From assembly GCA_035511075.1 (NCBI GenBank), contig DATKFW010000032.1:82950-146949 (forward strand): a stretch of DNA of 64,000 nt, given 5' to 3'. This stretch comes from Vulcanimicrobiaceae bacterium. GTDB taxonomy: Bacteria > Verrucomicrobiota > Verrucomicrobiia > Limisphaerales > Palsa-1400. Below, in pieces: positions 26,330-35,893 of the stretch (position 1 is the stretch's first letter; every line of letters begins with the position of its first letter). The notes beneath the pieces are model-generated. The model had not been told where the DNA came from, ran no database searches, and saw only the letters and a program-made list of their open reading frames with translations. The position numbers and the translations under genes are program-made.

Positions 26330-26404
26330 GCGCGGTTAGCTCAGTGGTAGAGCATCACCTTGACACGGTGGGGGTCACAGGTTCAATCCCTGTATCGCGC
26401 ACCA
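26330..26404 (+). tRNA. tRNA-Val (anticodon GAC), CCA encoded
   Basis: Manual cloverleaf. Acceptor GCGCGGT/ATCGCGC (one G-U), D arm GCTC-AGTGGTA-GAGC, anticodon arm TCACC-TTGACAC-GGTGG, T arm ACAGG-TTCAATC-CCTGT, discriminator A plus CCA. Confidence 0.9.
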
Positions 26405-27673
26405 TTTGGACTCTTCTTGACTCTTCGCGACAGAAGCCGACAAACCATGACAATCCCCTTTGTTTTCAAGGCTTTTGGCAATTTGCGTTACCGCAAAATC
26501 CGCGACAGACCGCGACACCGCGGGACTGCTCTGGACTATAGTTTGTGAGTCCAGTTGTGAGTCAGGTTTTGCGGCCTTCTCACCGTCGATAAAAGCCAGC
26601 TTTTGCACCGCTTCAAATGTGCCAAGCTGCTCTTCGTCAGTGTAGTCCATGTCCGTAAGCTTGCGCGTCCCGTGTCGCATCAATTGCATCGCCTGACGCC
26701 CTGACACGTTTGCCCGGTGCAGGTTCGTGCAAAACGTGTGACGCAAGGCGTGAAAATCCGCCCGCAATCCCCGCTCATCAACGAACAGGATTTGCGCTTT
26801 ATCCATGTCCGACTTGAACGTTTCCATTTTCGGTAACAATCCGGCAAACACCCTGTCTGAATCACCCGCCCGCGCAGATCGAAGGGCTTTTAATTCAACG
26901 GCCAGGCTCAAATGCAGCGGAATAAACGCCTGCTTGCCATTCTTCGTTGTACCCGCGCGGAGCACCAATCGCGGTTGCGGACAGTCCAAATGAACGTCTC
27001 CCCATAAAAGTTCCCGCAATTCGCCCCGCCGAACTCCCGTCAGCATCGCCATCAAATAGACTATCCGCCGCCGACCAGCCACCGCCAGCAACCGCGACGC
27101 CTCATTGTCGGTCAGAGCGCGACGTGCATACCGTGGTTTGATCGCCCGCGTGGTACGCCATCCTTCAACAATTTTGAGCGGATTCGCCTGGAGGCGCTCC
27201 CGCCGTTCCATCCAGTTCAGCAATGCCTTGAACGAGATCAAGTATTCATTGAGGGTTTTGTCCGATTGCTTTTGCTCCGCCCGCCATGCGCGGAACGAGT
27301 CCGGCGAAATGTCCCGCGCAAATTCCCAACCACAGTCGCCGGCGACTTTCAATACGCGGTTCTTCAATTCGTAAAGATAACGCTCGTCGCGTCCACCCTC
27401 CCGACGCTCCGCCACAAAATCGGCCAGGTGTTCCGCAATCGTCTTTTGCGCACCCTCACGGATGTTTTTCGGGGTGATCACCCCTTCAGCCTCCTGTTGC
27501 CTCTCACGAGCGATTTTCTTCAACCTCTCAAGCGCCACTTGCTTGTCGAAAGTGTGCAACGGAATGTCGGTTGTCTTTGTGGCCCCATCCAATCGCAAAC
27601 GACCGCGATACATTCGGGCGGTTTTCGACCGACCCTTTTTGCTCCGTTTGGGTTTGAACACATATAAAATCAC
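26375..27673 (-). CDS. int: tyrosine recombinase / phage-type integrase
   Basis: Probable GTG start at 27673 (GTGA overlap with the upstream ORF stop), giving (M)ILYVFKPKRSKKG... Catalytic residues in ..LTGVRRGEL.., ..HALRHTFCTNL.., ..LMRHGTRKLTDMDYTD... The 3' end runs into the tRNA core and stops at a TGA at 26375-26377. Confidence 0.9.
   Translation of the reverse strand: MILYVFKPKRSKKGRSKTARMYRGRLRLDGATKTTDIPLHTFDKQVALERLKKIARERQQEAEGVITPKNIREGAQKTIAEHLADFVAERREGGRDERYLYELKNRVLKVAGDCGWEFARDISPDSFRAWRAEQKQSDKTLNEYLISFKALLNWMERRERLQANPLKIVEGWRTTRAIKPRYARRALTDNEASRLLAVAGRRRIVYLMAMLTGVRRGELRELLWGDVHLDCPQPRLVLRAGTTKNGKQAFIPLHLSLAVELKALRSARAGDSDRVFAGLLPKMETFKSDMDKAQILFVDERGLRADFHALRHTFCTNLHRANVSGRQAMQLMRHGTRKLTDMDYTDEEQLGTFEAVQKLAFIDGEKAAKPDSQLDSQTIVQSSPAVSRSVADFAVTQIAKSLENKGDCHGLSASVAKSQEESKWCAIQGLNL
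26377..26405 (+). repeat. att core copy 1 (within the intact tRNA-Val 3' end)
   Basis: ACAGGTTCAATCCCTGTATCGCGCACCAT. Identical at 34528-34556 and with one mismatch at 35809-35839. Confidence 0.9.
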
Positions 27674-27870
27674 GCTGGCAATCCTCTCTGACGTTGTTTC
27701 AGTTTGCTCAAGTACGCTTGGACATCCGACAGATACAGCATCGGTTTTTTCGTCGGCCTGACGGGCGTCGGAAGCTCGCCTTTCGCGATCAATCTTTCCA
27801 CTGACCGGGCACAAATCCCACCCAGGAACCTGCCAGCCTCTCTCAAATCAATTAAACGTTCCTCGTTCAT
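27670..27870 (-). CDS. excisionase/AlpA-like helix-turn-helix DNA-binding protein
   Basis: 66 aa from the ATG at 27870: MNEERLIDLREAGRFLGGICARSVERLIAKGELPTPVRPTKKPMLYLSDVQAYL.. (MerR/Xis-type HTH_17 pattern). Translationally coupled to int. Confidence 0.65.
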   Translation of the reverse strand: MNEERLIDLREAGRFLGGICARSVERLIAKGELPTPVRPTKKPMLYLSDVQAYLSKLKQRQRGLPA

Positions 27871-27907
27871 GTGTTTTTCTCTACTGAGGGATTCCACCAA
27901 CTGCCAT

Positions 27908-28342
27908 TCACCGTCGCTCCTCCTCGTCCATAGCATCACGATACGCCGCCTCCTGCTCTTCTTGGAAGGACAAGCGCTTGGTGTATTCACGATAAACCGA
28001 ATTATGGTCGCACTCGATGCCCCGTTCTTGCAACCATTCCGCGATTTCGCGAAACGTGAACCGTTTGTCGTCCCGCAGGAGCCTGATTGAATCGCCGTAC
28101 TCTGCCACAAGCGTTCGATCTGGTTCTTCCATTGCCTCTCGCAACACAAATTCCGGCAGAGGATTTCCACGCTCCGTTACAGCCAAAGCAGGCTGTGTTT
28201 CGGTTTTGACCTCCTGAGAGGGAAGCGACAACGGTTCCTTAACCTTGACTTTCTTGACACGCATCTTTGTTTTCACGGGAACAAAGTAAACGAACATCCC
28301 GAACAGCGCAAGGGAAAACAACAAAGTATCTCGCCTATGCAT
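27908..28342 (-). CDS. membrane-anchored protein with C-terminal resolvase-like HTH
   Basis: ATG at 28342 gives MHRRDTLLFSLALFGMFVYFVPV (TM). C-terminus ..IRLLRDDKRFTFREIAEWLQERGIECDHNSVYREY.. resembles HTH_7-type DNA-binding motifs. The start codon is uncertain. Confidence 0.5.
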   Translation of the reverse strand: MHRRDTLLFSLALFGMFVYFVPVKTKMRVKKVKVKEPLSLPSQEVKTETQPALAVTERGNPLPEFVLREAMEEPDRTLVAEYGDSIRLLRDDKRFTFREIAEWLQERGIECDHNSVYREYTKRLSFQEEQEAAYRDAMDEEERR

Positions 28343-28653
28343 CTCATGTATAATCCACACTGATATACTGAAACCTGTCATTCCCTGCTGCGCGTTCCTG
28401 TGTTGGCATCCGGCTTGCGGCAAACAGGAACGCCAAGCCAAATGCCAACACGCGAACGCTCCGCCCCCACAAGTGCCTGGTCGTGAAGTCGCTGGATTCC
28501 AGCTTGCGCCCTGTTTGCCCTTCGCAAGATGGAATCCACCGCCATCACCGCCAGGAAGCTGACGCCACGGGGAAGGCCGCTTTTAGGGTGTCATTTATGG
28601 CTGTCCGCTGTCGCGGGGGGTGGAAAATCAGACCGTGCTTTTACTCGCTCTCC

Positions 28654-28671
28654 GCCGCCGCGAGCGGCGGC
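28654..28671. promoter_or_regulatory. perfect 8+8 palindrome GCCGCCGC-GA-GCGGCGGC in the leader of the cargo operon (possible operator)
   Basis: Read directly in the 527-nt region between the divergent HTH gene and the cargo operon. Function is not established. Confidence 0.25.
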
Positions 28672-28968
28672 AATCCGGTGTAAATGCGACGCACGAGCCG
28701 CGGTGTTCTTTGTTTCACGATTGTTTCAATTTAAAACTTGCTATCAGGATGCCCGTCGCTCAATGCTCCGAGTGGTTCTTTAACAGTTCAGATTTTGCGT
28801 AGCGTTGACCGCTACTCAAAGCCGCAGGAAAGACCCGCCAAGTTTCAAGGGCACGAACAAGAAACTCTCTTGCAGGTGCCGTAGCGTGTCGCCTCCTGAC
28901 CGGAGCGCCGGTGTGCGCCCCTCAGGTTTTCTCTGGAGCGAACGGTCAAATTTAAAGGAGTCCCAAAT

Positions 28969-31038
28969 ATGAATCGTCAATCAGCCCTTTTGCATGGAGT
29001 CTTTATCGCCGCGATTGGTCTTTGGCTTGCAGTCAACGCCTCAGCACAACTGCAATTTACGTCAATCTCAAACACCCCTGAAGGGACCATTCAATTGAAA
29101 TGGGCGAGCATAAGCAAGGAAACCTATGAAATTGACGAAGCCGATACACTGGAAACGAACGCCCAGGGATCCCTCACTTGGAACGAACTTTACAAAGAAT
29201 ATCCATCTCAAGGCTCAAGTACGTTCTGGCTGGACACCGGGAACTATATTTCTGTGCCCCCCATCCTCAATCCTAAGTACACGACTAACCGGTTTTATCG
29301 CGTCGTCGATCTTGGGCCTGACACCACATCCGACGAGCCGACCGTCTCGATCACGTCCCCTGCCAGTGGCTCCACGGTATCTGGGAGTTTGACGATAACG
29401 GTTGCCGCCAGCACCGATCAGACCAGCCTTTCGACGTTGCTTTACGTTGACGGCCAGGAGATGCCGGTTAGCGCTGGTGGCTCCAATTACGTCATCAACA
29501 CCTGCGAATGGCTGAATGGTCAGCATATCCTGTTTGCAACTGCCCGATGCACCTCGGCACCCGAAGGTGGGGACAATAGCCCGGCAGTCCTGGTCGGACA
29601 TGCGGTATCCGCATTCGTGCCTGTAACATTTAACAACCTCGTTACCGGTATTACCTTTTCGCAGCCGTTCTTTGATCCCACACTTGGCCAAACCCAGTTG
29701 GTCACTGCCGTTTTTGCCTCGAATTCAGATTGGACGCTGACAATTATCAACGCAGCGAGCAACACCGTGAGAACGGCAACTGGAAGCGGAACCACGATGG
29801 CTTTTAACTGGGATGGAACAGGAACTGGAGAAATAAGCTTACCGGCAGGCGTCTATAATTACCTGATTTCAGCATACACAAACGGACTGGGTTCAGGGGG
29901 TAGTGGCACCAATGGAGGAGGAAACGGGGAACCGCCGCCGCCTGGTGGCGACGAGGTCTCGCCTGGGTCACCGGCATCGGTCAGTGGGACCGGAATGGAA
30001 ACAGTTCAACTTCCCCCTGCCCCTGTTCCATTCTTTTATGGAAGGAACGCTGACGGAACCGAAATTACGACGATGGAGGTTCCTGTGCCTGACAATACAA
30101 TCGACGAAAGCGCGCTACTTGCAGGCGGGATACATCCTGATGGCGCTCCATCGGCCCCCAGTTCGCAATCGGCTCCTGCTGCTCCGGTGCGCCCGCCGAC
30201 CGCACCGGTCAGAGGCACGGTCGGAACATTTGGGGTGGCATATCAATCCTATATAGAAAACGGCGCGGCGGGCTATACGCTAGGCGACCCTCTGAACTGC
30301 GAGATTGGCGGCGTCATCAAAATAGAGGGTTTCCCGACCGATGAAAACAACAACTTTCCGCCGCTGCCGTCATACGGTCCGCAAGCGAGAAACTTCATCG
30401 CCGCAATGAAACAGGGAGGCTGGAACGCCAGCTTTGTGACTGCTGATAATCAGGTAAGGTCTACTACGATTACAGGCAGCGCAAGCCCTTTCAATCAAGT
30501 CAATTTAGGATTGCTCATGCTTCACGGCGTTTACGGCGCTACAGCCGACTATTGCTACAACGGCTGCAAACAAATGTACTTTCCGCTCGGAAACCTCTAC
30601 GGCAGCGCCAGTTGGATTAATATGGGCGACATGAATTTTGGCGGCACGCCCACAAACGGGCTTGAGTGGATGGCAATCGAAGCCTGCTTTAGCCTTTACC
30701 AGCCCAACTGGACGAGTATGCAAAGCGCAAATATAAAGCCTTATAATAGTAACCTCCATTTGCTTTTGGGGGTAAATACAACCAGCTTCACCGATCGAAA
30801 CCGAGAGGCGCTTTGGGCCCAATACATGCAGTTCGGAAAGACTCCCGGCAGTCCGATGACAATCCAGGCAGCTTGGTATCAGGCTGCCAGAGATGGGTTT
30901 CAATTGAGCAAATTCAGCTACGACGGTACGATAAGCTACGCCGTTGCGGGGGATGCCAACTGCTCAGGTGATTACTTGTTAACTAATTCGCCTCCGACGG
31001 GAACGCAGTTTTATTTCAGCCAGCAAATTTATCCCTAG
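28969..31038 (+). CDS. secreted multidomain protein: FYRV module + Ig-like + FlgD-Ig-like + Gly/Pro linkers + C-terminal clan-CD-like (His-Gly...Ala-Cys) domain
   Basis: AAGGAG 8 nt upstream of the ATG. Signal peptide (..AIGLWLAVNASAQ). PTVSITSPASGSTVSGSLTITVAAS (Ig-like). ..WTLTIINAASNTVRTATGSGTTMAFNWDGTG..LPAGVYNYLI (FlgD-Ig-like). GSGGSGTNGGGNGEPPPPGG linker. LGLLMLHG (His519) and WMAIEAC (Cys573) in the last ~270 aa. Confidence 0.75.
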   Translation: MNRQSALLHGVFIAAIGLWLAVNASAQLQFTSISNTPEGTIQLKWASISKETYEIDEADTLETNAQGSLTWNELYKEYPSQGSSTFWLDTGNYISVPPILNPKYTTNRFYRVVDLGPDTTSDEPTVSITSPASGSTVSGSLTITVAASTDQTSLSTLLYVDGQEMPVSAGGSNYVINTCEWLNGQHILFATARCTSAPEGGDNSPAVLVGHAVSAFVPVTFNNLVTGITFSQPFFDPTLGQTQLVTAVFASNSDWTLTIINAASNTVRTATGSGTTMAFNWDGTGTGEISLPAGVYNYLISAYTNGLGSGGSGTNGGGNGEPPPPGGDEVSPGSPASVSGTGMETVQLPPAPVPFFYGRNADGTEITTMEVPVPDNTIDESALLAGGIHPDGAPSAPSSQSAPAAPVRPPTAPVRGTVGTFGVAYQSYIENGAAGYTLGDPLNCEIGGVIKIEGFPTDENNNFPPLPSYGPQARNFIAAMKQGGWNASFVTADNQVRSTTITGSASPFNQVNLGLLMLHGVYGATADYCYNGCKQMYFPLGNLYGSASWINMGDMNFGGTPTNGLEWMAIEACFSLYQPNWTSMQSANIKPYNSNLHLLLGVNTTSFTDRNREALWAQYMQFGKTPGSPMTIQAAWYQAARDGFQLSKFSYDGTISYAVAGDANCSGDYLLTNSPPTGTQFYFSQQIYP

Positions 31039-31043
31039 GCGGC

Positions 31044-32006
31044 ATGAAAGCGGCGGGAGTCTGCATTTTGCTTCAGGTTCTTTGCGCCGCAGGTTATTCC
31101 GAGAATCTGCGGTTTAAGCAGTTCGGAACACCTATTCCAGCACGCGCTGATCTGGACGTGCGCTGGAATGGGCCTTCCAATGCGTTTCCGGCGAAGCTGT
31201 GGATTTATCACCTGCTGCCAGCAAAGTTTTCCGCTGAGACCATCGGCACTTTGACAGAGCTAGGTTCATTCACGGACAAAGATAGAACTGATTCAGGGGC
31301 AACCGAAATGCGCTTTCGCAGCGCTGACAAGGCTCGCAGTTTATACATATCCTTTCCCCTTGGAGTGATCGATTACGAAGGCGTACCTAAGTACAACCCG
31401 ACTAATCTGGTCGAAGACATTCCAAGTAAGGAAACGGCGGTCGATCTGACGCGGCAACTTCTGCCTAAGCTTGGAGTCAGGCTTTCCGACATAGACAAAG
31501 AGGAAAACAGCCCGGAACCCGCATTCCATGTGGGCGATTCTGCGATTACGTTTTTTGTTAATGGCACATTCGTCAGCAACATTGTCGAACGCCGGGTCGG
31601 TTTCCGGCGCGCCGTGGACGGCGCGTCATTTCTCAGCGCAGGCTCAGGCGGCGACGGAGACGTGAAATTCGGGGACCACGGCAAAATAGTCCAGATTTAC
31701 ATTTCGTGGCGTGGGTTGGACCGGGACAAGTCCTGTCCGACTGTTACACTCGACAAGATCGTCGAGTCGATTCGTAAAGGCCAAGCCGTGCAAGGATTGC
31801 TTCCATCCGACGCTCCTGGGATCGACTGGCCGAAGGTGAAAAGCATCACCATCAAGAAGGCGTGGCCTTGTTATTACGCCGGGAACCCTCTTGCTCCTTC
31901 CGATTGGCTTTATCCGTTTGCGGCGCTCTCAACAACCGTCGATACTGGCCGCCGGAATGTTGATGTCGAAATCGATTGCCCTATCATCGAAGAAGCTGGG
32001 GAATGA
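31044..32006 (+). CDS. secreted hypothetical protein, paralogue of the next gene
   Basis: 320 aa with a signal peptide (MKAAGVCILLQVLCAAG). Aligns with the next ORF (FPAKLWIYHLLPAKFSAETIGTL versus LPGDFWIYRRVLPHIFSASVISN; LLPKLGVRLSDI versus CASRLGVDLAQV). Starts 5 nt after the previous stop. Confidence 0.65.
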   Translation: MKAAGVCILLQVLCAAGYSENLRFKQFGTPIPARADLDVRWNGPSNAFPAKLWIYHLLPAKFSAETIGTLTELGSFTDKDRTDSGATEMRFRSADKARSLYISFPLGVIDYEGVPKYNPTNLVEDIPSKETAVDLTRQLLPKLGVRLSDIDKEENSPEPAFHVGDSAITFFVNGTFVSNIVERRVGFRRAVDGASFLSAGSGGDGDVKFGDHGKIVQIYISWRGLDRDKSCPTVTLDKIVESIRKGQAVQGLLPSDAPGIDWPKVKSITIKKAWPCYYAGNPLAPSDWLYPFAALSTTVDTGRRNVDVEIDCPIIEEAGE

Positions 32007-33004
32007 AAGCTTTTGTGCTCATCGCAATGATTTCGGGGATGGCTTTACCCTCTATTTGCGGTCCATATGCGTCGATGGAGAAATTCTCTCCCCATTTCTC
32101 CACAAATACACCGATTCTCTGGAAAGCAACGAATCAATTGCCCGGGGATTTTTGGATTTATAGGAGGGTTCTTCCGCATATCTTTTCCGCATCGGTGATT
32201 TCCAACGCAATCCTTCTGGCCTCGTTGGAGAAAGGCGGCTTTCCCAAGCCTTCCGCCAATGACTTTTACGTGCATGAAGATAAGGAACCAAACTACCCTG
32301 GCGCGATCTCCTGTTATTTTGGCATTATCCCTGGTGACGCGCATCTGTATTATGGCGCGCCCCACCCGGATACCAATTCAACGGAAATTCCAGATGACGA
32401 AATTCTCATAAAACGCGCGCGGGACTGTGCATCCCGACTCGGGGTTGATCTCGCACAGGTCGTTGCGGAGAAGCCAAGTTCCATTTTTAATCGGGATAAG
32501 GATTGGCACACGTTGACGAATCAGATTTGTGGCCGCCGCGTCTTTTTGTCGCGTCAGCTTGACGGAATTACATTTTACGACCACAACGACAACGGATGGA
32601 GTGAAGGCTTGAGTTTTGCCCTCAGCAATGGCGGAACAATCAGGTCCTTTTATCTGGACTGGCCAGAGGTTAAGCGGGCTGACCGGGGTCAAACGGCCAG
32701 CGTTCAGCAAATCATCGCCCTCATACGGGCACATAGAGTCATTGTGCTTCCCAATGTCGGTGAAGAAACGTATTTTCAGAGGGTCAAAGCGCTGGCAAAC
32801 GCCAAAACGTTCAGCATCACGAATGTTACTCCGTACTATCTCGACGGTGAGTTGGGGGACACGAATCAAAATTACGCGCCGCCTAAATACGCAACCCCGA
32901 TTGCTGAACTGGACGCTGTTGCCGACTTCGGGAACAGTAATGCCGCCGTTCGGATGTTTTCTTTCATCCTGTCCTCTGACGCGACGAGAGCGCTTACCAA
33001 ATAG
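32003..33004 (+). CDS. secreted hypothetical protein, paralogue of the previous gene
   Basis: ATG at 32003 overlaps the upstream stop (ATGA). Signal-like MKAFVLIAMISGMALPSICG. Colinear similarity to the 31044-32006 product. Confidence 0.65.
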   Translation: MKAFVLIAMISGMALPSICGPYASMEKFSPHFSTNTPILWKATNQLPGDFWIYRRVLPHIFSASVISNAILLASLEKGGFPKPSANDFYVHEDKEPNYPGAISCYFGIIPGDAHLYYGAPHPDTNSTEIPDDEILIKRARDCASRLGVDLAQVVAEKPSSIFNRDKDWHTLTNQICGRRVFLSRQLDGITFYDHNDNGWSEGLSFALSNGGTIRSFYLDWPEVKRADRGQTASVQQIIALIRAHRVIVLPNVGEETYFQRVKALANAKTFSITNVTPYYLDGELGDTNQNYAPPKYATPIAELDAVADFGNSNAAVRMFSFILSSDATRALTK

Positions 33005-33207: not shown

Positions 33208-33705
33208 TCATCCGCGCGAAAGTGTTAAATCTCCCGCATACGCCGGATGACGCGGGCCCAAAAGTTTCACGTTCCACCATGAACCTTCTTTCGTGACGTA
33301 TTTGGCGCAGTAATCGGCGACGTCATCTCGATTATTGACTGGCTCGATCCGGTTGCGACCATAACGCTCAAACCAAGTTCGCCAGGTTTCGCGCCGCGAT
33401 TTACTTTTACAATCACACCACAACGCGTGGACATGGTATCCATCCCTTCCTGGATTTTGTTCCAACGCGTAGAAATACGACACGCCCCACATTTCCCGTT
33501 TCATGAACTTTTCGTAACACCGTTGCGCCGACCAAATGGACGCTTCCCATGCAAATGTCATGTGTGAAATGACCTGCCACGGAGCCAGCGAATGCACCCA
33601 ATCGCCCATCTCCACGTTCAACTGCGCGACTTTCAACCGCATCGCCGGTTCAAGATTCCTCGCGTTGTTCATATTTACCCGTGGGCTGATTATTTCTGTA
33701 CACAC
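33208..33705 (-). CDS. small HUH-superfamily rolling-circle Rep/relaxase-like protein (two-tyrosine type)
   Basis: Motif I-like ISHMTFAW. HUH motif GYHVHALW (33427-33435). Two-Tyr motif YCAKYVTK (33289-33312), 6/8 identical to the phiX174 gpA active-site octapeptide YVAKYVNK as I recall it. Confidence 0.7.
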   Translation of the reverse strand: MCTEIISPRVNMNNARNLEPAMRLKVAQLNVEMGDWVHSLAPWQVISHMTFAWEASIWSAQRCYEKFMKREMWGVSYFYALEQNPGRDGYHVHALWCDCKSKSRRETWRTWFERYGRNRIEPVNNRDDVADYCAKYVTKEGSWWNVKLLGPRHPAYAGDLTLSRG

Positions 33706-34149: not shown

Positions 34150-34311
34150 GTTTTTCCATTTGGCTTAACTGCGCAACAGGCGACGCCACGGCCTTCGCCG
34201 TTGAGGTTCACAACGATCAGTCCTTCGATTTTTCCATCCACGCCGGCCGAGCGAGCAGAATGGCCGGTTAGTTGCGCGACAGGCAGGCCACGCCTATTGC
34301 GAAAGGGAGCA

Positions 34312-34340
34312 TTGACAGTGCGCCGCTTCATTGGTAAAGT
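34312..34340 (+). promoter_or_regulatory. outward-facing sigma70-like promoter in end module copy A
   Basis: TTGACA (34312-34317), 17-nt spacer, TAAAGT (34335-34340). Points across the att core toward the PEP-CTERM gene. Confidence 0.45.
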
Positions 34341-34527
34341 TTCGTTGAAGTGGAACCCATTTCAGCCAGTGCCAGGATTGCAGCTTTGACAGCGGGAAGG
34401 AGCGTCGGCCAAGCGTTGATGACCGAAGCCAACTCGGCGGGAACAGGTGCCACTTGGTGTCCGACTGCGGTTTGTGAGTCTATTTGTGAGGCTCTTGGCG
34501 TAACGGCTTGATTTGCATCAGGCTTTG

Positions 34528-34556
34528 ACAGGTTCAATCCCTGTATCGCGCACCAT
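34528..34556 (+). repeat. att core copy 2 (attR of the 8.2-kb element)
   Basis: Identical 29 nt to 26377-26405. Confidence 0.9.
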
Positions 34557-34791
34557 CTAATCGGAAACGACCGCCCTGATGCTCTTGGCCGCGTCCGCCC
34601 CATCCGCGCTCTTTCTCCGGCCAGCGTCCAAAGACGCGCCGTGGAGTTGCTGACGACGCTGACGGACGCGAATTCGCTGATGGCCGAAAAGTGACTACGA
34701 ATGTCCCATAATCGGGTAGATGAGTTTTGTGGGGTCTGGTATTTTTATTATGAAAGCGTAGTTAGAAGACTAAAAAAAAAGACCAAAAATT

Positions 34792-35478
34792 ATGAAGAGT
34801 AGCATCGTTAAATTCTGCTTAGTGGGTATGACAATCGCGAGCGGACTCGCGTTGGCTGGCGAGGCTCAGGCCACGATTATTACCACGGCAACGCAAACCC
34901 CCACTTTTGACCCCACCGATTTTAACAATCCGGGCGGCGGCTATAGTTTTAACAATCTCTCACTGCCCGCCGGCACCTCTATTGGAACCACGGTGCTGCA
35001 AATTGACATTCCATTGTCAAGCAGTATCACCTTGACCAGCGTGGGCATGGGGTACAACTACGGCTTTGGCATGGGTGGCCTCGACCCTGAAATCCAGCCT
35101 GGCGGCGAAGCGTTCAGCTTTTACATTCAGTTGCTCAACAATGGTTCGGCCATTACCCCGAGTTATGCTTATCTCATGGCAAATCCCTATACTTTCGGGT
35201 TCACAGAGCCTAATCCGTTTGGTGTTCCCGAGAACAATTTGTATGTCACCACCGGCACCGGGTCGCTTGCCTCAAGCCTGACCTTTAATGAAATCGACAT
35301 TCAGGTTTTTAACTATAGCCAGACCGAAGCTGCAGACAGTTTCGGTGTTTCGTTGGGGGTCAATGAGCCTCTTAACGCCGTTCCCGAGCCGACAACGCTG
35401 ATCTCCGGCGCGATGCTGCTGCTGCCGTTTGGATCGAGTGCCCTGCGGCAGTTGCGCAAGAAATTACAGACGGCTTAA
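34792..35478 (+). CDS. PEP-CTERM sorting-domain protein
   Basis: Signal peptide (..GLALAGEAQA). C-terminal VPEPTTLISGAMLLLPFGSSALRQLRKK (PEP motif + TM + basic tail). Confidence 0.85.
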   Translation: MKSSIVKFCLVGMTIASGLALAGEAQATIITTATQTPTFDPTDFNNPGGGYSFNNLSLPAGTSIGTTVLQIDIPLSSSITLTSVGMGYNYGFGMGGLDPEIQPGGEAFSFYIQLLNNGSAITPSYAYLMANPYTFGFTEPNPFGVPENNLYVTTGTGSLASSLTFNEIDIQVFNYSQTEAADSFGVSLGVNEPLNAVPEPTTLISGAMLLLPFGSSALRQLRKKLQTA

Positions 35479-35507: not shown

Positions 35508-35539
35508 AGGCGTTGGCTCTGGCCAGCGCCTTTTTGTTT
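35508..35539 (+). terminator. rho-independent terminator of the PEP-CTERM gene
   Basis: AGGCGTTGGC-TCTG-GCCAGCGCCT: a 10-bp stem with one G-U, followed by TTTTTGTTT. Confidence 0.7.
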
Positions 35540-35629
35540 CCTTCGATTTTTCCATCCACGCCGGACGAGCAGGCAGAATGGCCGGTTAGTTGCGCAACAG
35601 GCTGGCCAAGCCTATTACAAAAGGGAGCA

Positions 35630-35658
35630 TTGACAGTGCGCCGCCTCATTGGTAAACT
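35630..35658 (+). promoter_or_regulatory. outward-facing sigma70-like promoter in end module copy B
   Basis: TTGACA (35630-35635), 17-nt spacer, TAAACT (35653-35658). Points toward the prepilin-type gene at 35894. Confidence 0.4.
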
Positions 35659-35808
35659 TCCTCTGAAGTGGAACCCGTGCCAGCCGCGCCAGGATTGCAG
35701 CTTTGACATCGGGAATGAGCGTCGGCCAAGCGTTGATGACCGAAGCCAACTCGGCTGAAACAGGTGCCACTCGGTGCTCGGCTGCGGTTTGATTTGCATC
35801 AGGCTTTG

Positions 35809-35839
35809 ACAGGTTCGATCCCTGTATCGCGCACCATTT
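35809..35839 (+). repeat. att core copy 3 (outermost, one mismatch)
   Basis: ACAGGTTCGATCCCTGTATCGCGCACCATTT. One A-to-G change relative to the tRNA. Matches 2 further nt of the tRNA 3' flank. Confidence 0.85.
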
Positions 35840-35893
35840 AAGGAGGGAATTTTTTTGACTTTAGAGTCTTAACGATTAAAATAAGGTAAAGCT

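Follow-up and report, generated by a model that had tools for sequence, protein, structure and literature searches.

A predicted secreted PrtH-type cysteine peptidase and its proposed partner proteins on a verrucomicrobial integrative element

The DNA analysed here, referred to as the window, is a 64,000-nucleotide (nt) stretch of contig DATKFW010000032.1 (positions 82,950 to 146,949, forward strand) from GenBank assembly GCA_035511075.1, a Vulcanimicrobiaceae bacterium placed by GTDB in the Verrucomicrobiota (Limisphaerales; Palsa-1400). Within an integrative element at a tRNA-Val gene, it carries a cassette of three same-strand open reading frames (ORFs), g1, g2 and g3; the first encodes a predicted secreted multidomain protein that ends in a DUF6345 domain and is putatively a cysteine peptidase of the PrtH type, while the other two encode a near-obligate partner protein and an optional paralogue of it. 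The cassette is laid out as follows, with positions given in the window.

28442..28968, + strand: non-coding leader ahead of g1 (527 nt, no convincing gene).
28969..31038, + strand: g1, 689 amino acids (aa), multidomain, predicted secreted, with a C-terminal PrtH-like domain.
28969..29046, + strand: putative signal peptide of g1 (aa 1-26, end ...NASA/Q), from the sequence and the model helix at residues 3-24.
31044..32006, + strand: g2, 320 aa, predicted secreted, modelled with a YycI/YycH-like fold, near-obligate partner of g1-type genes.
32003..33004, + strand: g3, 333 aa, paralogue of g2, ATGA-coupled, optional second partner.

A preliminary description of this DNA had placed three tightly packed ORFs at these positions, with a 5-nt gap, an ATGA overlap, a 527-nt leader and an AAGGAG motif, and all of these elements are present: the g1/g2 boundary reads TAG-GCGGC-ATG, g2 and g3 overlap in ATGA (with the g3 ATG at 32003) and AAGGAG lies at 28955-28960, 8 nt ahead of the g1 ATG. 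Independent gene calls on six metagenome contigs bearing the same element also yield products of 689, 320 and 333 aa. Within the leader, an Rfam scan returned no family and a promoter scan no convincing sigma-70-like site; an 84-aa Arg/Ala-rich ORF (28529-28783, + strand), called on contig L051 and not on L049 or L050, is probably spurious. The signal peptides attributed to the three products agree with their N-termini, each of which opens with a charged residue and runs on into a hydrophobic stretch, and with N-terminal helices in the AlphaFold models of g1 (residues 3-24) and g2 (residues 2-16); the N-terminus is hydrophobic in all g1 homologues of a 32-sequence alignment.

The modules of g1 and the two residues discussed below map to these positions.

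29050..29883, + strand: three β-sandwich modules, namely an FN3-like module ending in FYRV (aa 28-117), Big_7 (aa 124-186 onward) and a FlgD-Ig-like module (aa 251-305).
29884..30198, + strand: disordered Gly/Pro-rich linker (aa 306-410), with predicted local distance difference test scores (pLDDT) of 25-57 and poorly conserved, length-variable alignment columns.
30202..31035, + strand: DUF6345/PrtH-like (MEROPS C84) putative cysteine-peptidase domain (aa 412-689; PF19872).
30523..30525, + strand: codon of His519, the putative catalytic His (LHG, within LGLLMLHG in the translation).
30685..30687, + strand: codon of Cys573, the putative catalytic Cys (EAC, within WMAIEAC in the translation).

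The immunoglobulin (Ig)-like and FlgD-Ig-like domains proposed for the N-terminal half are recovered by Pfam as Big_7 (residues 124-186, E 1.4e-7) and FlgD_ig (251-305, E 2e-5), the latter at 24.9 bits slightly under its 27-bit cut-off, and the β-sandwich region as a whole has an all-β secondary structure in the model and matches Ig/FN3 arrays in Foldseek. The C-terminal match to DUF6345 (PF19872; residues 471-642) reaches 38.6 bits and E 1e-9, with a gathering cut-off of 26.9; a match to CHU_C, a type IX secretion system (T9SS) C-terminal domain, is sub-threshold (E 0.078). The AlphaFold model has a pLDDT of 75.6 overall and of about 77-94 in the C-terminal α/β domain, whose first half is made of β419-425, α469-482, β485-492, α498-510, β513-517 and small strands at 521-523, 536-541 and 547-551, and whose second half comprises β567-571, α578-586, β598-602, α612-621, α632-647, β655-662 and β680-688. 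The resulting order of elements is β1-α1-β2-α2-β3(His)-small three-stranded sheet-β4(Cys)-α-β5-α-α-β6.

A search of 5.8 billion proteins returned 347 homologues of g1, nearly all of about 700 aa with the same architecture and, where named, from Verrucomicrobiota; when 1.84 billion representatives were searched exhaustively with a profile, no more than 307 clusters reached E <= 1e-3, and the environmental branch of DUF6345 amounts to about 300 clusters at 50% identity. A further profile search, seeded with the most divergent members and aimed at Bacteroidota, gave only 12 close matches. His519 and Cys573 are invariant in the 32-sequence alignment and each is kept in 210 of 211 domain sequences, within HGxxG and WMxxxxC motifs that hold in members down to about 30% identity; F476, Asp527 (D/E), Y537, L565, W567, P591, H597, W636 and D668 are also nearly invariant in the larger set. 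Both residues are retained by the most divergent members, including proteins of 1,300-4,400 aa that carry the domain C-terminally. Among such long proteins, P0340 (4359 aa), P0301 (1584 aa) and P0367 (1314 aa) end in a DUF6345 domain that retains His and Cys, and Big_7 and FlgD_ig modules stand directly ahead of it in P0301 and P0367. In the g1 model, DSSP assigns a strand at 513-517 followed by H519-G520 and another at 567-571 followed by A572-C573, each of the two residues lying two positions past a β-strand. The His-Gly/Ala-Cys signature picked out in g1 by the preliminary description has in this way proved to be family-wide. Mean-field covariation (direct-coupling analysis) over 185-210 domain sequences gave indel artefacts as its top couplings.

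The literature mentions DUF6345 only once, as a 536-aa 'DUF6345 domain-containing protein' of Tannerella forsythia found in vesicles, and the prtH gene of this species, BFO_1417 (1522327-1523937), is 1,611 nt long, or 536 codons plus stop (PMC3925233 supplement). T. forsythia prtH was retrieved by scanning metagenome contigs with the forward primer of a prtH quantitative PCR assay (PMC9633823), which matched three contigs; in each of the two that were read, the primer lies inside a 536-aa ORF, equal in length to both BFO_1417 and the protein annotated with DUF6345. Because residues 44-253 of this ORF match PF19872 (E 2.4e-13, 50.5 bits), covering positions 12-219 of the 221 in the model, DUF6345 is, on sequence grounds, the PrtH family; and since g1 and PrtH both match DUF6345, as do 20 of 21 homologous g1-type domains (best E 1.3e-13), the C-terminal domain of g1 is on the same basis PrtH-like and belongs to MEROPS family C84. 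The link is one of shared Pfam family, pairwise similarity being weak: hhalign of PrtH with the 211-sequence g1-family profile gave E 5e-4 over 87 columns that span the Cys motif and the next strand (E 0.003 with a smaller profile), aligning Cys573 with Cys147 in the PrtH segment ...LFWSTC147LSL and stopping short of PrtH H104-G105, 43 residues upstream. Both proteins possess a W-x-x-x-x-C-x-S-L motif with its following strand and a His-Gly upstream of the Cys (H104/C147 in PrtH, H519/C573 in g1), but the spacing between His and Cys is 43 residues in PrtH and 54 in g1, and the PrtH domain stands near the N-terminus of a protein without Ig-like modules, whereas that of g1 is C-terminal and preceded by three β-sandwiches and a long linker. 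PrtH differs moreover in coming from a host-associated species of Bacteroidota, and on the contig read prtH is followed by a papain-family gene and not by a separate g2-like gene. This papain-family gene (L056:2300-3112; Peptidase_C1, E 3e-19), on an oral-metagenome contig, lies on the same strand about 450 nt downstream of prtH.

PrtH is described as a cysteine protease for which Arg at P1 is listed as the specificity and no structure exists (PMC4357240). In view of that listed Arg specificity, a candidate site of processing in g1 is a conserved R-P-P-x-x-P-(V/I)-x-G segment (residues 406-415, 30184-30213) located where the disordered linker meets the peptidase domain's first strand.

MEROPS family C84 was assigned to clan CD because its fold was predicted to be caspase-like (Pei and Grishin 2009, cited in PMC4357240). 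Clan CD domains are built on a six-stranded sheet of order 2-1-3-4-5-6, with the last strand antiparallel and five flanking helices; the His stands at the C-terminal end of β3, the Cys at that of β4, and β3 is followed by a small sheet of three strands (PMC4357240). The linear order of secondary structure in the g1 model fits this description, small sheet included, and the modelled placement of His519 and Cys573 after strands agrees with the definition of the clan. The same placement and small sheet relate g1 to legumain (C13) and the caspases (C14), and legumain also has an HGxxG after a hydrophobic strand (FTDHGSTG) and an (I/L)-x-A-C after another (YIEAC). The human legumain sequence was verified against PDB. 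Unlike these enzymes, g1 has a β-hairpin and not a helix between the His and Cys strands. The clan CD reading of g1 is supported via family membership, with which the residue pattern and the predicted secondary-structure order agree, and not by a match of folds; the domain would have a caspase-like three-dimensional fold. Foldseek searches with the full-length g1 model gave PorU (6za2), a gingipain-like clan CD sortase, as the best match in PDB (E 3e-6), every other match in PDB and BFVD being an Ig/FN3 array.

The two downstream genes had been described as diverged paralogues of no nameable family, and both statements stand. BLASTP aligns g2 with g3 at 25% identity over 288 aa (E 1e-14), which identifies them as paralogues; the 116 homologues of g2 are all 'hypothetical' and without any Pfam domain, a permissive Pfam search of 45 g2-family members returned none at E <= 10, YycH/YycI families included, and a profile search of the family against PDB chains was empty. 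The AlphaFold model of g2 (pLDDT 90.5, predicted TM-score 0.84) nevertheless matches EUBREC_2869 (5coz), YycI (2o3o) and YycH (9a5d) in Foldseek at E 8e-7 to 3.5e-5, with a probability of 1.00 and TM-scores of 0.38-0.57 over about 290-336 aligned columns, and g2 is accordingly predicted to have a YycI/YycH-like extracytoplasmic fold without membership of those families by sequence. YycI and YycH, which regulate the WalK kinase of Bacillus subtilis, and the uncharacterised protein EUBREC_2869 are extracytoplasmic like g2 and share the fold of its model; g2 differs from YycI/YycH in that its cassette has no histidine kinase and its conserved neighbour is a putative peptidase, and both g2 and g3 have short signal-peptide-like N-termini and not a clear membrane anchor. 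At the C-terminus, g2-type proteins carry a nearly invariant (V/I)EIDCPIIDE (g2 residues 305-315, 31956-31988), and because g3-type proteins have (V/L)RLxSPILSS at this position, only the g2 type has the Cys of the motif. The idea that g2 might bear a sorting signal at its C-terminus was discarded, since this motif forms the last β-strand of the modelled fold (305-313).

Conservation of gene order was assessed in 48 related loci, of which 41 are informative, with 300 nt or more of sequence beyond the g1 stop codon. In 40 of these 41, a gene of the g2 family lies directly downstream of the g1 homologue: it starts within a few bases of the g1 stop in 37 loci by tblastn, and three further loci (L045, L046, L048) gain it with a family hidden Markov model. 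The only exception, L043 (10001-12056), has a g1 homologue broken into several frames and no partner gene. The pairing persists down to 29-33% identity in g1, and 4-nt overlaps are frequent at the g1/partner boundary. A second, g3-type copy (35-52% identity) stands behind the g2-type gene in 10 loci, and the number of partner copies per locus ranges from one to three, the three genes at L025:12084-15043 being arranged as g3-type, g2-type, g3-type. At L028:3187-4127 a frameshift divides the first partner gene. Because the g2-type gene is present in 40 of 41 loci and the g3-type gene in 10, the core unit consists of two genes with an optional third. No other neighbour is conserved around the g1 loci, and the conserved neighbours include no secretion-system, anchoring or histidine kinase gene.

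The loci come almost entirely from Verrucomicrobiota metagenome-assembled genomes (MAGs) sampled from soil, peat and lakes, and a single MAG often contains several of them. Cassette contigs L018, L027, L034, L037, L040 and L043 lie in MAGs labelled Acidiferrales, Sulfotelmatobacter, Bifidobacteriaceae, Limnocylindria, Elusimicrobiota and Alphaproteobacteria. Since these copies are 40-50% identical to those of Verrucomicrobiota, mis-binning is more likely than a wide distribution, and horizontal transfer may also account for such labels.

Around the cassette, the element and its borders comprise the following.

26330..26404, + strand: tRNA-Val(GAC), the integration target (ARAGORN; Rfam tRNA, 66.8 bits).
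26377-26405: left attachment (att) copy, the 3' end of tRNA-Val (repeat alignment).
26375..27814, - strand: tyrosine integrase, a 479-aa ORF (Pfam Phage_integrase, E 1.8e-15; PHROG 1 integrase, E 3.7e-38).
27670..27936, - strand: small excisionase/helix-turn-helix (HTH)-like gene, a weak assignment (C-terminal 88 aa of a 166-aa ORF, as called on L050).
27908..28441, - strand: uncharacterised element gene that runs divergently to the operon (177-aa ORF; 144 aa in the gene call on L049).
33208..33705, - strand: rolling-circle-type replication initiator (Pfam REP_ORF2-G2P, E 1.4e-6, 28.9 bits against a cut-off of 27.8).
34532..34560, + strand: right att copy, identical over 29 nt to the tRNA-Val 3' end, ACAGGTTCAATCCCTGTATCGCGCACCAT (repeat search and alignment).

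The att copies are 8.15 kb apart and bound an element of about 8.2 kb (26.38-34.56 kb), in which the integrase ORF overlaps the 3' end of tRNA-Val; G+C content is 0.52-0.54 between about 25 and 37 kb, compared with 0.58-0.61 in the flanks. With an integrase beside a tRNA, the tRNA 3' end repeated directly at the opposite border and a deviating G+C, the region has the marks of a tRNA-targeting integrative element, which upholds for this locus the earlier view of the operon as cargo of a lower-G+C element. The 166-aa excisionase-like ORF matches PHROG 66 ('excisionase and transcriptional regulator') over its residues 92-162 (E 2.6e-5), and the 177-aa divergent ORF has a single relative, in L042, and no Pfam family. 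A REP_ORF2-G2P (rolling-circle, HUH-type) initiator is combined here with a tyrosine integrase, and the initiator gene is absent from the other g1 loci, integrase-bearing ones included. A phage structural role for g1-g3 was rejected, as PHROGs gave no phage family. Beyond the element, a third copy of the att core, with one mismatch, occurs at 35813-35841, the roughly 250 nt that precede the second att copy (34221-34474) recur at 35539-35791 with 89-92% identity, and a 228-aa ORF (34792-35478) has a PEP-CTERM-like end (VPEPTT...hydrophobic...RKK); this 1.3-kb module appears to be what remains of a second element integrated in tandem.

Integrase relatives are found upstream of g1 in only three other loci (L033, L044 and L048), and in L033 and L048 they adjoin a tRNA-Ser in the same arrangement as at the tRNA-Val of the window. 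The remaining g1 loci have no related integrase within 10 kb; other mobility genes near some loci are DUF5906 with HTH and an IS200-type transposase. Because only these three loci possess a related integrase, carriage on mobile elements is not general, and the proposal that the genes are mobile cargo is retained for the window and the three integrase-bearing loci and dropped for the loci at large: the cassette is cargo of a small tRNA-targeting element family in a minority of loci. In the window, it is carried on the 8.2-kb tRNA-Val element in the company of the integrase, the excisionase-like gene and the Rep gene.

We favour, as the probable explanation of these observations, that g1 is a secreted PrtH-type cysteine peptidase whose cognate binding partners, g2 and g3, control it. 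The g1 product would be a Sec-exported multidomain enzyme in which the N-terminal β-sandwich modules serve as binding or spacer domains, for substrate or surface, and are joined by the disordered Gly/Pro linker of about 100 residues to the C-terminal DUF6345 domain; the latter would be catalytically active through a His519/Cys573 dyad of the clan CD type, with each residue at the C-terminal end of a strand. The products of g2 and g3 would be exported YycI/YycH-fold proteins, kept in proportion to g1 by translational coupling, that bind the peptidase domain as cognate partners and, acting as a trans prodomain, inhibitor or immunity protein, keep g1 latent or shield the producer until the site of action is reached. 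A controlling role for g2 and g3 is proposed by analogy with the prodomains of other clan CD enzymes; physical contact with g1, and the direction of the partners' effect, are likewise inferred. Compared with the idea of a secreted protease-like effector with two partners put forward in the preliminary description, the protease-like reading is kept and the conserved unit is reduced to g1 with one partner.

A possible trace of such an association is found in PrtH, which extends 280 residues beyond its DUF6345 domain. An 88-sequence g2/g3 profile aligns with PrtH residues 325-436 (g2 104-223), encoded within L056:242-1852 (T. forsythia prtH), at an hhalign score of 29.6 and E 0.003; the C-terminal segment of PrtH scores 28.2 by itself, its 100 shuffles 13.5 ± 2.2 (maximum 24.3) and 130 unrelated real ORFs 14.9 ± 3.3 (maximum 26.7, under the full-length PrtH score). 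This suggests that peptidase and partner modules are fused in Bacteroidota PrtH, which, if true, would be a Rosetta-stone fusion supporting their physical interaction. It may be proposed, tentatively and as a minority expectation, that DUF6345/PrtH enzymes are two-component systems with a YycI/YycH-fold obligatory trans-prodomain, required for folding, latency or immunity, that is encoded in one to three separate copies in Verrucomicrobiota and fused in Bacteroidota PrtH/FDF (forsythia detaching factor).

Several points weigh against the picture of a clan CD peptidase under partner control. The PorU match is ambiguous and not assignable to the catalytic domain, as PorU itself has Ig-like domains. 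Searches of PDB with phmmer and with the domain profile gave no solved structure at E <= 10, and a permissive Pfam scan of 21 domain sequences returned DUF6345 alone, with no clan CD family at E <= 10; hhalign against human legumain was insignificant (probability 0.2%, only the Cys motif aligned), and phmmer with legumain as query, run on every ORF in the window and in the related loci for a local clan CD reference, found nothing. The g1 domain shows no detectable sequence or profile similarity to C11, C13, C14, C25, C50 or C80, so that the clan CD-like signature claimed at the outset is sustained through DUF6345/PrtH membership and not by any profile link to C11, C13, C14 or C25. Undetectable similarity is usual among clan CD families and does not exclude a shared fold. 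The placement of PrtH in the clan is itself a prediction. On the side of the partners, YycI and YycH are kinase regulators and not protease inhibitors, the similarity of PrtH to g2 is marginal, at an hhalign probability of 10%, and both the interaction of g1 with g2/g3 and inhibition by them are purely inferred.

PorU, GPI8 and the plant asparaginyl ligases are clan CD members that cleave or attach proteins, and g1 might likewise be a processing or sorting transpeptidase positioned at the envelope by its Ig-like domains, with g2 and g3 as its substrates or cargo. The top PDB match of the model to a T9SS sortase, the nearly obligate pairing with co-secreted proteins and the strongly conserved EIDCPIIDE at the end of g2-type proteins all point this way; yet that segment forms the last β-strand (305-313) of the g2 model and leaves no free tail, g3-type proteins have SPILSS instead, the PorU match may stem from the Ig-like domains only, and no lipid- or wall-anchoring machinery is conserved beside the cassette. 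Gingipains and PorU (C25, Porphyromonas gingivalis) do resemble g1 in being secreted bacterial His/Cys peptidases with Ig-like domains, but their domain order is reversed, sequence or profile similarity is absent, and g1 lacks an above-threshold T9SS C-terminal domain. We regard a transpeptidase as unlikely.

About as improbable is an antagonistic effector-immunity module, in which g1 would be an exported toxin-like peptidase directed against competitors and g2/g3 the periplasmic immunity proteins. A C-terminal peptidase domain followed immediately by an exported partner, one to three partner copies per locus that vary as immunity genes do, several cassettes per genome and the residence of some cassettes on integrative elements would all suit such a module, and polymorphic toxin systems include caspase-like toxin domains with downstream immunity genes (PMC3482391). 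In those systems a trafficking module precedes swapped C-terminal toxins; g1, however, has only Ig-like domains upstream, with no rearrangement hotspot (RHS), filamentous-haemagglutinin, type VI or type VII secretion system or Photorhabdus virulence cassette (PVC) trafficking module and no conserved secretion-system gene nearby, and its N-terminal part and C-terminal domain are conserved jointly, without alternative toxin tips. The proposal also overlaps with control of a PrtH-type peptidase by its partners, immunity being inhibition by binding. A non-catalytic surface or adhesion protein, with DUF6345 as a binding module and g2/g3 as unrelated, merely co-transcribed periplasmic proteins, is very improbable, for although three Ig/FN3-like modules dominate the structural matches and no similarity to an experimentally solved peptidase is detectable, His and Cys are kept in 210 of 211 sequences within HGxxG and WMxxxxC, as is typical of a catalytic dyad, PrtH, a cysteine protease in the literature, is a member of the family, and the gene order conserved in 40 of 41 loci, with frequent 4-nt overlaps, argues against accidental linkage.

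For a PrtH-type peptidase controlled by partner proteins, parallels exist in both layout and regulation. In the staphopain-staphostatin and SpeB-Spi pairs, the gene of a secreted cysteine peptidase is followed, within one operon, by that of a small cognate protein, a functional analogy on which the favoured explanation draws; these peptidases are papain-like, of clan CA or CA-like, and their inhibitors have other folds, and staphostatins are cytoplasmic whereas g2 and g3 carry putative export signals. Among clan CD enzymes, the latency of gingipains and PorU is controlled by prodomains or intermolecular contacts, and legumain has a C-terminal prodomain that forms a separate inhibitory domain, whereas the regulator proposed here is a separate gene product.

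In summary, the cassette is real and well conserved, and constitutes a new architecture within the PrtH (C84) family together with a previously undescribed partner family; the main value of the analysis is that it ties DUF6345 to PrtH and brings to light a peptidase-partner pair that can be tested. Within C84, a family without structure or known regulation, only PrtH/FDF has been studied, and the family now gains a large environmental DUF6345 branch with a His/Cys pair that is invariant, a different architecture and a near-obligate partner of predicted YycI-like fold that has no Pfam entry. As the element in the window shows, small tRNA-targeting elements can carry such cassettes from one genome to another. 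If the two-component proposal is true, it would represent a new peptidase-regulator pairing in clan CD and provide a role for the C-terminal half, so far uncharacterised, of a periodontal virulence factor; and should the partner be a latency or immunity factor, it would offer a handle on the control of this clan CD family and may explain the unexplained half of PrtH.

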